12,378 nt of DNA, from UHGV virus genome UHGV-1613228. One strand, written 5' to 3'. A program made the position numbers and the translations under genes. Position 1 is the stretch's first letter; each line of letters begins with the position of its first letter. Under the pieces are notes generated by a model, which was not told the origin of the DNA, did not search any database, and worked only from the letters and a program-made list of their open reading frames with translations. The stretch comes from a virus. Positions 7,983 to 10,675 of this stretch are shown piece after piece.

Positions 7983-8022
7983 AAACCAGTACAGCCACGG
8001 AAGGCATAACTCATTGCTTCCA

Positions 8023-8049
8023 GCCCGCCGATTCGCCGGGCATTTTTTT
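8023..8049 (+). terminator. Intrinsic terminator or attenuator just upstream of the orphan gene
   Basis: GCCCG / CGGGC stem with a 9-nt loop, then A and seven T. It ends only 12 nt before the orphan gene's ATG and overlaps the region before its Shine-Dalgarno. Confidence 0.5.
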
Positions 8050-8061
8050 AAGGTGAAAATC

Positions 8062-8394
8062 ATGAAAGAGAAGACTGCAGCTGAGCGCTATGCCGCAGCT
8101 ATCAATGCCGCGATGGCGATTGTAAACCTGCGTGAAGAGATTAAAGATCTCCTTGCAATTATCCATAACAACCTGACATGTACAGAGTTGCTTGGCGGTC
8201 AGTACAACGGTGAGGCGGTGAAGGAGGCATTTAAAAATGCCGAGGTAGGAATAATTCCAGCAAACTATGTCAAGGCTGAATGTGTGCTCCTAAAGGCACG
8301 AGTGAGTCTGCATGAAGATCCTGGTAATCTCGGTCGAACTGCAATGCGTTACGTGATAGACGAGTCGAATGCCAAACACAATCTACCGAAATAA
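8062..8394 (+). CDS. Orphan hypothetical protein, 110 aa (moron cargo), function unknown
   Basis: ATG at 8062 with AGGTGA 5 nt upstream, TAA stop at 8392..8394, and its own terminator downstream. Opposite strand to all flanking phage genes. The ORF track's longer version (from 7924) starts at TTG and runs through three hairpins, so I reject that extension. No recognisable motif; no obvious transmembrane segment; predicted helical N-terminus. Confidence 0.7.
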   Translation: MKEKTAAERYAAAINAAMAIVNLREEIKDLLAIIHNNLTCTELLGGQYNGEAVKEAFKNAEVGIIPANYVKAECVLLKARVSLHEDPGNLGRTAMRYVIDESNAKHNLPK

Positions 8395-8398
8395 CACC

Positions 8399-8410
8399 GT
8401 GACATGTCAC
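8399..8410. promoter_or_regulatory. Perfect 12-bp palindrome GTGACATGTCAC, copy 1
   Basis: Seen directly. Lies between the orphan gene stop and its terminator hairpin. An identical copy occurs at 10664..10675, and the preceding C is also shared. Confidence 0.5.
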
Positions 8411-8414
8411 AAAC

Positions 8415-8443
8415 AGCCAGCCTATGAGCTGGCTTTGTTTTAT
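8415..8443 (+). terminator. Intrinsic terminator for the orphan gene, possibly bidirectional
   Basis: AGCCAGC / GCTGGCT 7-bp stem with a 6-nt loop, then TTGTTTTAT on the plus strand. On the minus strand the same hairpin is followed by GUUUGUG and lies about 50 nt after the TerL stop. Confidence 0.6.
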
Positions 8444-8484
8444 CCTCACCAGAGGATATCAACGACATTATCCCCACCAGCGGA

Positions 8485-9960
8485 TTAAGCATAGGGATCG
8501 TAATCTGTGATGGCCTTGCCTTGCTGGTTCTGCTGACCGGGAATTCGCAGACGCTTAGACACAGGGAACGCAAACGTCAGCAGTAGCGCATCGCCTTTAC
8601 CCGGTGAACGCCCAAGCCGCTCCTTGATATCTTCCTTCGGTTCGATAACGATTTTACCGTCCACTCGAACTTTGTACTCTGCCGCCGACAGGTCGTCTGC
8701 TGTTTCCTGGTCATCCAGCATGCCGCCCAGCCTCAGCCATGTCTTGCATGAATTGAACATCTCCCCACGCTTGTTGAGCATCTGCGGGTCAGTAGACGCG
8801 CCACCGAACGGAACAAGTTGCCATGTACGACCCCAGCCGTCACCGATTGACTTCAAACCGGTTCCGTAACCGAAGTCGATGAACACCGCGTCAGCCTGAT
8901 ACTGGTCTTCAAAGTCAGCGATACGCTTCGCCATAATCAGATCGTCGGTAGTCTTGTTGCCAGTCCACAGCACCTTACTGTGTAGCCCCTGCCGCAGGTA
9001 TATCACAGCGTCATCAACGCCGGAGTATGCCGGGTCAACGCCGATTATCACCGGAGCATGTGCAACCTGCGCAGCGGTTACCACCCGTTTCATTGCCTCG
9101 TCAGTAAGACCGGTAGGGATAAACTGCAATTCAGATGCATCAGGGAATATGCCACGCACACGGATTTTAACGAAGTCGCTGTCTTCCCCGTAGTCATCAA
9201 CCCATTTCTGCAACTGCTGTTTGTTAGTGCCTTCCACCGTCCGGCTGTCAATCTGCGCAGTTTTCCAGCGGTGTTTATATTTGCGGAAACATTCGCGAAA
9301 ACGCCCGGTGTTACGTGTAGGGTTTCCGAACGCCACCCAAATAATCTCAGTGTCTTCGTCCGTAAGCGCACCCTCGGCAACTTCCCACACCAGATCCGCA
9401 ATGTTCGACGCTTCATCAAACACCACGATGATGCGTTTGCGCTCGTTGTGTAGTCCGGCGAATGCCTCGGTGTTGTGCTCAGACCAGGGTATTGCGTCAG
9501 CCCGCCACCGCTTGTCGTGCCCTAGGTCATTGCTGTACATCGCGGTAGCGGTACAGGTAAACCAGTCTTTCGTGATAGCAAGGTTCGACCACTTGATAAT
9601 TTCCGGCCAGGTCTTCGTTCGTAGCTGGTTGTCGGTGTTGGCGGTCACCACGACCTTACAATCCTCGCAAGTGGACATGCCCCAGTTGATCAGCATTGAG
9701 ATGAATGCGGATTTACCAATACCGTGACCAGAAGCGCGTGCCAGCATAAGCGGCTGATAGCGCGTCTCTGGATTCTGCAGGTGATCACGTATCTCTCGGA
9801 ACGCATCAGCCTGCCACTGACGTGGGCCGGTGGCATGTGCCAGTTCAGTCCCCTCTTCCCCCCATGGGAACGCATAGAGGGCATAGCCAAGCGGATCGTG
9901 AGTGAACCCTGCAATATCCTCGATTAACTGCTCTTCAGGAGATAACGCTGTATCTGTCAC
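8485..9960 (-). CDS. Terminase large subunit (TerL), 491 aa
   Basis: Walker A-like ASGHGIGKS, Walker B-like VVFDEAS, and a C-terminal nuclease-type motif IIGVDPAY are all readable in the translation. GTG start overlaps the TerS stop (GTGA), with AGGA about 9 nt upstream. Confidence 0.9.
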   Translation of the reverse strand: MTDTALSPEEQLIEDIAGFTHDPLGYALYAFPWGEEGTELAHATGPRQWQADAFREIRDHLQNPETRYQPLMLARASGHGIGKSAFISMLINWGMSTCEDCKVVVTANTDNQLRTKTWPEIIKWSNLAITKDWFTCTATAMYSNDLGHDKRWRADAIPWSEHNTEAFAGLHNERKRIIVVFDEASNIADLVWEVAEGALTDEDTEIIWVAFGNPTRNTGRFRECFRKYKHRWKTAQIDSRTVEGTNKQQLQKWVDDYGEDSDFVKIRVRGIFPDASELQFIPTGLTDEAMKRVVTAAQVAHAPVIIGVDPAYSGVDDAVIYLRQGLHSKVLWTGNKTTDDLIMAKRIADFEDQYQADAVFIDFGYGTGLKSIGDGWGRTWQLVPFGGASTDPQMLNKRGEMFNSCKTWLRLGGMLDDQETADDLSAAEYKVRVDGKIVIEPKEDIKERLGRSPGKGDALLLTFAFPVSKRLRIPGQQNQQGKAITDYDPYA

Positions 9961-10553
9961 TGATTGCCATCCTGACGTTCTTTCAGTCTCTTCCTGGCTG
10001 CCGCTATGCGATCAGCAATTGTCACATTCACATTAACATCCAGGCGTTCTTTGAATGCGTTGACGTCGACGTGCTTACCAATCAGTTCGAGGTTCTTCAC
10101 CTTGTCAGGCCATTTAATTTTTTTGAGGATTGTCTCTATCGAATCCTCGTTCATGTTCATGATGGTCGATGACAGATCAAAGCCACTAAGCGTAGTGCGC
10201 CAGATTTTCGGCCACTCGCGGATTGGCTTAAGGCTCCCATCGTCGTTGAGGATGTCGATCACGTCCATCTGGTCGATCTCCACCAGGCGCATGAGAACGT
10301 AATCAGCACTGACGCGCATTCGTTTGTTGCGCTCTTCCATCAGCTCGGCAATCCGTTTTTGAATGCGTTCATCGCGCATCATGAGACTGGCTTTAACTGC
10401 CGCTGTATTTGGGGAGAATCCTGCGTTAATCGCTGCCTGAGTCTGGTTTTCAGGCGTTTTGATGTATGACTGGCAATAAGCCTCCTGCATTGCTGTTAGT
10501 GGCTTAAATTGCGTTGATTTGCGTTTATAGGTTTTAGGTTCAGCAGGCATCAT
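9957..10553 (-). CDS. Terminase small subunit (TerS), about 198 aa
   Basis: Immediately upstream of TerL and translationally coupled to it. N-terminal region resembles the DNA-binding part of small terminases (LTAMQEAYCQSY...INAGFSPNTA). The ORF track extends to a TTG at 10631, but that extension runs through a terminator hairpin, so I start at the ATG pair at 10553/10550. Confidence 0.75.
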   Translation of the reverse strand: MMPAEPKTYKRKSTQFKPLTAMQEAYCQSYIKTPENQTQAAINAGFSPNTAAVKASLMMRDERIQKRIAELMEERNKRMRVSADYVLMRLVEIDQMDVIDILNDDGSLKPIREWPKIWRTTLSGFDLSSTIMNMNEDSIETILKKIKWPDKVKNLELIGKHVDVNAFKERLDVNVNVTIADRIAAARKRLKERQDGNQ

Positions 10554-10560
10554 AACCACC

Positions 10561-10589
10561 GTGGTAATAGTTACCGTTGTGGTAATAGT
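10561..10589. repeat. Tandem direct repeat GTGGTAATAGT (2 copies, 18 bp apart) in the TerS leader
   Basis: Copies at 10561..10571 and 10579..10589, each followed by (T)ACC. Located between the upstream terminator and the TerS start codon. Confidence 0.6.
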
Positions 10590-10593
10590 ACCA

Positions 10594-10622
10594 TGCAAAA
10601 TAAAGCCGCCATAGTTGGCGGC
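10594..10622 (-). terminator. Intrinsic terminator between the early-region genes and TerS
   Basis: On the minus strand: GCCGCC-AACUAU-GGCGGC (6-bp GC stem) followed by UUUAUUUUG, about 40 nt upstream of the TerS ATG. Confidence 0.6.
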
Positions 10623-10663
10623 AGTATTCAAAACCCATCAAATTCATCATGCATAATCTACTC

Positions 10664-10675
10664 GTGACATGTCAC
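10664..10675. promoter_or_regulatory. Perfect 12-bp palindrome GTGACATGTCAC, copy 2
   Basis: Identical to the copy at 8399..8410. Lies between the stop of the 100-aa gene (10707) and the terminator upstream of TerS. It overlaps a -35-like GTGACA when read on the minus strand. Confidence 0.5.

Follow-up and report, generated by a model that had tools for sequence, protein, structure and literature searches.

What is the function of a 110-aa protein whose gene interrupts, on the opposite strand, the packaging/head operon of a temperate phage? The question is raised by a DNA stretch of 12,378 nucleotides from the virus genome UHGV-1613228 (the whole stretch is called the window in the following), which comes from a phiV10-like prophage, a temperate podophage of the phiV10/epsilon15 type (Uetakevirus). 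The packaging/head operon on its minus strand is interrupted by a short plus-strand module comprising a tRNA-Arg(TCT), a structured leader and an open reading frame (ORF) with an ATG start at 8062 and a TAA stop at 8392-8394. This coding sequence (CDS; 8062..8394, + strand, stop included) encodes a protein that is identical to WP_001561052.1 and belongs to the phrog_27507 family. Reading the genomic context only, we put the probability at about one half that the product is a phage counter-defence protein and its gene one allele of a plug-in cassette.

Longer spurious ORFs occur in the window, and the length of the ORF alone is not above chance. It is the conservation pattern that identifies the ORF at 8062-8394, as judged from sequence comparison, as a real gene under strong purifying selection: orthologues with 61-98% identity are found at the same position in E. 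coli, Klebsiella oxytoca, Pseudocitrobacter faecalis and metagenomic phages, and comparison of the ORF with the Klebsiella and metagenomic copies gave 0.16-0.19 nonsynonymous (pN) and 0.70-0.90 synonymous differences per site (pS, saturated), corresponding to an omega of ~0.09.

A slot with exchangeable coding sequences

The window was compared with related E. coli prophages (L003, L017, L020 and L021) by BLAST/alignment. They are co-linear with the window and 97-98% identical to it up to position 8069 and again from 8390; the intervening gene is an unrelated one. What is exchanged within the cassette is the segment 8070..8389 (+ strand). The shared left flank covers a hairpin, a run of seven T (T7), the sequence AAGGTGA and ATGAA, and the shared right flank covers TAA, the palindrome GTGACATGTCAC and a terminator. 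The slot, which lies opposite in strand to the packaging/head genes, has the tRNA-Arg on one side and the large terminase gene on the other. Neighbourhood conservation, which the initial annotation of this locus had recommended looking at, revealed a point which that annotation had missed: the slot is shared with cassettes for the anti-defence proteins Acb4 and Tad2.

The exchange also bears on the claim that the gene is of foreign origin, which had been derived from its rare E. coli codons. That exactly the CDS part 8070-8389 is swapped in prophages that are otherwise 97-98% identical supports such an origin. Codon usage was rejected as evidence for it: ATA, CTA and CGA occur twice each and GGA once, which makes 7/110 codons (6.4%), and the share of rare codons in five neighbouring genes is 1.5-8.0%, so that the ORF is no outlier. 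Its base composition deviates mildly, with a GC content of 46.5% vs 50.8% for the whole window and a GC content at third codon positions of 45% vs 50-60% in neighbouring genes.

The occupants of the slot were counted as E. coli genomes with a megablast match among 5,426, the position of the match in the slot being unchecked. Acb4-like genes (PF13876 Phage_gp49_66, E 1.8e-34; weak match to PDB 9E4W, 'anti-CBASS 4') were found in 527/5,426 genomes. Two families had a PHROG match only, phrog_4846 (139-140 aa, and a truncated 61-aa form) with 117/5,426 and phrog_3163 (115 aa), whose cassette has its own longer leader, with 11/5,426; genes of these families of unknown function were located at 432-851 in L017, 1333-1755 in L022, 434-619 in L018 and 526-873 in L020. 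Tad2-like genes (PF11195 'Thoeris anti-defense 2-like', E 3.1e-24; PDB Tad2/AcrIIA7 chains to E 3e-15) were found in 3/5,426 genomes and the phrog_27507 ORF in two. An empty slot, which was not counted, is present in L019. PF13876 corresponds to Acb4, an anti-CBASS sponge, and PF11195/DUF2829 to Tad2, an anti-Thoeris sponge (PMC12265669; 10.1101/2024.12.30.630793). The ORF thus occupies, with identical boundaries, the same locus as verified anti-defence genes (PF13876, PF11195) in close relatives.

The likeness to the Acb4 cassette (PF13876; PDB 9E4W is Acb4 of SPO1) includes slot and leader, the start context with its ribosome-binding site, and palindrome and terminator, all of which are identical, also in phage phiV10. 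Acb4 is of similar size (124 aa vs 110 aa) and, like the ORF, restricted to phages and prophages. Unlike the cassette, the proteins themselves are not related in sequence: the ORF has no PF13876 match, and its predicted fold does not retrieve 9E4W. Tad2 (PF11195/DUF2829; PDB 8SME, 8V3E and 9EIB; also AcrIIA7) is an alternative occupant of the slot with 98 aa; here, too, the ORF matched neither PF11195 nor a Tad2 chain, and no fold match to PDB Tad2 chains was obtained. Homology of the ORF family to other slot families was rejected, since hhalign gave a probability of 0.2% against each of the other four.

Cassettes can also be stacked. In the contig L036 (IMGVR_UViG_3300045988_007995, region 2380-3340), a phrog_4846 cassette encoding 140 aa (2518-2940) is followed by the ORF (3001-3333). 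The segment with hairpin, T7 and ribosome-binding site (window 8021-8067) is repeated between the two cassettes, and a copy of GTGACATGTCAC follows each of them. The imperfect hairpin upstream of the ORF in the window is identical in sequence to this inter-cassette junction and resembles a hybrid of leader hairpin and cassette terminator. This identity suggests, at the level of sequence, that recombination between terminator-like hairpins may lead to the gain and loss of cassettes.

Replacement of anti-defence genes at the same locus is already known, and here an uncharacterised candidate family is added. In SPbeta-like phages, gad1 and gad2 are unrelated anti-defence genes that share a locus in related phages, and new inhibitors have been discovered by following this pattern of exchange (10.1101/2023.05.01.538930). 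As in the case of gad1/gad2 and of anti-CRISPR loci, unrelated genes are swapped in the ORF slot at one fixed locus among close phages. Unlike in gad1/gad2, the boundaries of the exchange coincide with start and stop codons, and the cassettes are stackable in tandem with a duplicated junction of hairpin and ribosome-binding site. By the same logic of the slot, phrog_4846 and phrog_3163 would likewise be anti-defence candidates.

Additional small genes were observed next to the ORF. Klebsiella relatives (L012-L014, 5388-5642) carry an 84-aa gene after it, and in one metagenomic relative (L015, 4500-4992) it is preceded by two genes of 76 and 63 aa; none of the three had a Pfam match. Since these genes flank the ORF, the slot is a small multi-gene island in some lineages.

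The phrog_27507 family and its predicted fold

The ORF product is a full-length member of phrog_27507 (E 3.5e-75; residues 1-110 vs profile 1-110/110), a family without functional annotation in PHROGs v4, and 43/43 aligned relatives match phrog_27507 and no other PHROG. A word-indexed search of 5.8 billion proteins retrieved 15 relatives, and 45 clusters at E <= 1e-3 were obtained when 1.84 billion representatives were searched exhaustively with a profile. The relatives are nearly all 100-115 aa long, and full-length homologues are found down to ~25% identity. Among its members, the motifs (E)RY (close to the N-terminus), LTxxE, AF, YVK and LH are conserved. The distant protein P0054 is a genuine relative of the ORF product, because independent profiles of the two subfamilies align with a probability of 99.2% (E 6e-20).

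The protein had been described by the initial annotation as an orphan without recognisable family, and this holds true for Pfam, NCBIfam, PADLOC and the PDB but not in the strict sense, since it is a member of phrog_27507 with its 45 clusters. The profile hidden Markov model (HMM) search that had been recommended was run and gave no match in a curated library. In Pfam, there was no match for the ORF up to E 10, including PF13876 and PF11195; the best value in NCBIfam (E 0.12) is noise, and 0 families of the PADLOC-DB defence HMMs were hit at E <= 10. PDB sequences were matched neither by the single ORF sequence nor by the 43-sequence profile. When the 43 members were scanned one by one against Pfam, only scattered single-member matches were obtained. 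With the distant proteins P0041 or P0027 as queries, no relatives were found in IMG/VR, and the literature searched for WP_001561052 and phrog_27507 contained no mention of either. As far as sequence searches tell, phrog_27507 is a sparse family, and the ORF is no singleton yet lies outside the curated libraries.

A structure was predicted with AlphaFold2 (AF2). A model based on 12 close homologues was poor (predicted local distance difference test, pLDDT, 57) and was discarded, but with the 43-sequence family alignment the monomer was modelled with a pLDDT of 95.8 and a predicted template modelling score (pTM) of 0.80. The model comprises a long helix (residues 6-37), short helices (40-45 and 50-59), a three-stranded sheet (63-82) and a helix (92-102); its C-terminal half has an alpha-beta-beta-beta-alpha topology. 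Similarity searches, also proposed at the outset, gave no significant fold match in the PDB or BFVD. A resemblance of the predicted fold to double-stranded RNA-binding domains is only a lead. The long helix 6-37 is compatible with oligomerisation, without proving any.

Distant homologues are found in several other contexts. In an unrelated metagenomic phage (L004/L005), P0054 is encoded in an array of small early genes, where it is the immediate downstream neighbour of Lockin (PDB 9P8L, E 7e-20) and stands two genes behind Tad3 (PF25185, E 1.3e-29). Both Lockin and Tad3 inhibit Thoeris (Tad3 by its Pfam description). The likeness of the ORF to Lockin/Tad3 is one of neighbourhood only, via P0054, without homology. 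Lockin forms hexamers and consists mostly of beta-sheet, whereas for the ORF product a long helix at the N-terminus and a subsequent alpha/beta domain are predicted. In lambdoid prophages of Serratia fonticola, the nin region contains a homologue flanked by a Dam or N6/N4 methyltransferase on one side and by NinF/NinG on the other, and another homologue comes after NinG. In L006, the homologue is situated in an early region, after SSB, a Rad52-like gene and an exonuclease. Finally, in two unrelated phages (L044 and L045), the homologue leads an island of small genes on the opposite strand inside the head/packaging module, an arrangement that recalls that of the window.

A proposed role in counter-defence and the alternatives

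In the slot, the fixed leader supplies structured hairpins, the hairpin with T7, and AAGGTGA with the ATG, the fixed tail supplies the TAA, the palindrome GTGACATGTCAC and the terminator, and the coding sequence alone is exchanged, probably via recombination in the shared flanks. Acb4 and Tad2, the commonest identified occupants in E. coli, act by sequestering nucleotide signals, those of CBASS and Thoeris, respectively. By analogy, the 110-aa protein may block a signalling-type defence, either as a signal-sequestering homo-oligomer or by direct binding of a defence protein. Viral sponges are short proteins that form homo-oligomers with several positively charged pockets at the protomer interfaces; they take up an immune nucleotide, release it intact and abolish the corresponding defence (PMC12265669), and with 110 aa the ORF product falls into their size range (<200 aa, often ~100 aa). 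Because its slot-mates are sponges for immune signals and the protein is small like known sponges, inhibition of nucleotide-signalling defence appears to be the most likely specific mechanism, if a tentative one that taken by itself we consider rather doubtful. It is possible, if still the less probable outcome, that phrog_27507 founds a new fold of phage immune inhibitors directed against enterobacterial defence, maybe against a signalling system without a known sponge, that the slot is a plug-in anti-defence site and that phrog_4846 and phrog_3163 are likewise inhibitors.

Several observations weigh against a role in counter-defence. Two of the other families in the slot have no known function, and an anti-defence role is not proven for every occupant. 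The product had been called roughly charge-neutral, and indeed lysine plus arginine and aspartate plus glutamate amount to 14 each, giving a net charge of zero and an isoelectric point (pI) of 6.8. This contrasts with the positively charged pockets described for sponges, although net charge does not decide the charge of a pocket. The contexts in the nin region and next to SSB fit DNA or RNA metabolism equally well. Besides, the ORF is rare (2/5,426 complete E. coli genomes), and tblastn with three family members (the ORF and two distant relatives) gave no match in 50,697 phage records. With respect to the timing of expression, no good sigma-70-like promoter was found above the scan threshold within 7100-8700 and two terminator-like hairpins precede the ORF.

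A serious alternative, which we nevertheless regard as unlikely, is a role in host takeover or regulation that has nothing to do with immunity, for instance as a small factor that binds RNA, DNA or proteins and intervenes, early in infection, in the nucleic-acid metabolism of host or phage. The alpha-beta-beta-beta-alpha topology of the predicted C-terminal half would suit such a factor, and so would the homologues beside NinF/NinG and DNA methyltransferases and those after SSB, the Rad52-like gene and the exonuclease. This alternative leaves unexplained, however, why one expression cassette can contain either the ORF, Acb4 or Tad2, and why a homologue is placed near Lockin and Tad3.

Clearly less probable is a lysogenic-conversion moron, that is, a gene expressed from the prophage to the benefit of the host, for example by superinfection exclusion, defence or fitness. 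A position opposite to the late operon and an own terminator are classical moron anatomy, and the presence of the ORF varies among otherwise identical prophages. But there was no match to a PADLOC defence model, the identifiable slot-mates are counter-defence and not defence proteins, and the distant homologues are found in early phage regions. The absence of a detectable sigma-70-like promoter and the two terminators upstream of the ORF also speak against expression as a moron.

A function tied to the adjacent tRNA-Arg (anticodon TCT; 7787..7863, + strand), such that the protein protects, modifies or uses the phage tRNA, is very improbable. The tRNA lies upstream of the cassette on the same strand, 198 nt from the ORF, and both are probably co-transcribed. 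However, the tRNA is missing from the locus in several relatives that keep the ORF (BCE049, C6, Klebsiella, Pseudocitrobacter and several metagenomic ones), and it accompanies all the other cassette types as well as the empty slot. Since tRNA and ORF occur independently, a link between them is largely refuted.

That the ORF is an untranslated chance ORF, for which nothing speaks beyond how often ORFs of such a length occur in general, is refuted by the conservation pattern (low pN vs saturated pS) and is practically negligible in view of full-length homologues to ~25% identity, a confident AF2 model and a canonical ribosome-binding site.

For the counter-defence proposal, the ORF is a good lead: it represents an uncharacterised family with a confident, unmatched predicted fold that was not found in sequenced phage isolates, and the boundaries for a swap are simple. 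Anti-defence families absent from cultured phages are missed by laborious screens, and the three members of phrog_27507 used as tblastn queries were without a match in the phage records searched. In a common E. coli prophage lineage, a single slot is occupied by Acb4, by Tad2 or by any of three small proteins that are uncharacterised, and since the boundaries of the exchange are at the limits of the CDS, the design of swaps is simple. If the ORF product is a defence inhibitor, it would provide a new inhibitor fold and possibly a pointer to the targeted E. coli pathway, and it would validate the slot as a site of discovery. If it is not, the cassette architecture still shows temperate phages shuffling accessory genes via shared junctions of terminator and ribosome-binding site.

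Control elements and neighbouring features

The signals around the ORF that the initial annotation had named were all located. The Shine-Dalgarno sequence AGGTGA (8051-8056, + strand) ends 5 nt before the ATG and is common to the Acb4, Tad2 and phrog_4846 cassettes. It is directly preceded by the terminator-like hairpin with T7 (8023..8049, + strand), which abuts the ribosome-binding site. The hairpin itself, GCCCGCCGATTCGCCGGGC (8023-8041), contains one internal C·C mismatch and is followed by an A and then by T7 (8043-8049). Hairpin and T7 are common to all cassette variants, and the pairing is kept by compensatory changes (GCCCGG/CCGGGC in most loci vs GCCCAC/GTGGGC in L030). Downstream, the intrinsic terminator of the cassette (8415..8444, + strand) consists of a stem-loop (8415-8434) followed by the T-rich tail TTTGTTTTAT; it is common to other cassette types, and the equivalent site is annotated as rho-independent terminator in phiV10.

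The region between tRNA and cassette contains a structured leader (7907..7985, + strand) with two strong hairpins, a terminator-like one at 7907-7942 followed by T5 and a second one at ~7946-7985. The fold of the 212-nt leader has a z-score of -4.7. The leader is conserved with compensatory changes in relatives that lack the tRNA, and in BCE049, L010 and L012 the first stem is paired via different sequences. The same leader precedes Acb4 and Tad2 cassettes. An attenuated or conditional expression had been deduced from the upstream hairpin, and conditional read-through of the upstream hairpins into the ORF may plausibly occur.

A perfect -35 hexamer TTGACA is present on the plus strand at 7428-7433, followed after 17 nt by TACCTT. 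It was spotted by eye, is below the threshold of the promoter scan and lies ~330 nt upstream of the tRNA and ~630 nt upstream of the ORF. By its sequence and position, it could be a candidate promoter of the module of tRNA and cassette. The stretch 7460-7786 contains no convincing ORF.

Some database entries of the family (P0002, 142 aa; P0007, 132 aa) begin at an upstream TTG or ATG and are longer by ~22-32 residues; in the window, such an ORF would extend over 7924-8394. These extensions cross the terminator hairpin and are not conserved, and from the sequence the longer starts look mis-called.

The perfect 12-bp palindrome GTGACATGTCAC (8399..8410) is located just past the stop codon and is kept after every cassette. 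A second exact copy is found at 10664-10675, ~33 bp upstream of the start of the small terminase gene, and a copy with one mismatch at 5399-5410; the 2 exact matches compare with 0.03 expected per window. The two exact copies bracket the terminase genes, and both positions are conserved in the E. coli, Klebsiella and Pseudocitrobacter relatives. The palindrome could function as the operator of a regulator of late genes, or else as a site related to recombination or packaging. The genes for the small terminase (9957-10631), the large terminase (8485-9960) and the portal (5459-7138) are encoded on the minus strand, as are the capsid genes.

In an Rfam scan of 7100-8500, the tRNA was the sole match. 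In BCE049 and C6, the only complete E. coli genomes with the ORF, the segment with the tRNA (window 7734-7935) is replaced by ~343 nt of unrelated sequence without a tRNA, as mapped against L001 (8552-8894) and likewise against L002. The arrangement of tRNA plus ORF seen in the window is matched by five IMG/VR contigs (L033-L035, L037 and L039). Despite the phage-encoded tRNA-Arg(TCT), AGA is used once in ~2,025 codons of the six genes counted; because AGA is almost unused, codon supply is an unconvincing reason for the tRNA. It is conceivable that the tRNA serves in counter-defence against tRNA-targeting systems or as a target for recombination.
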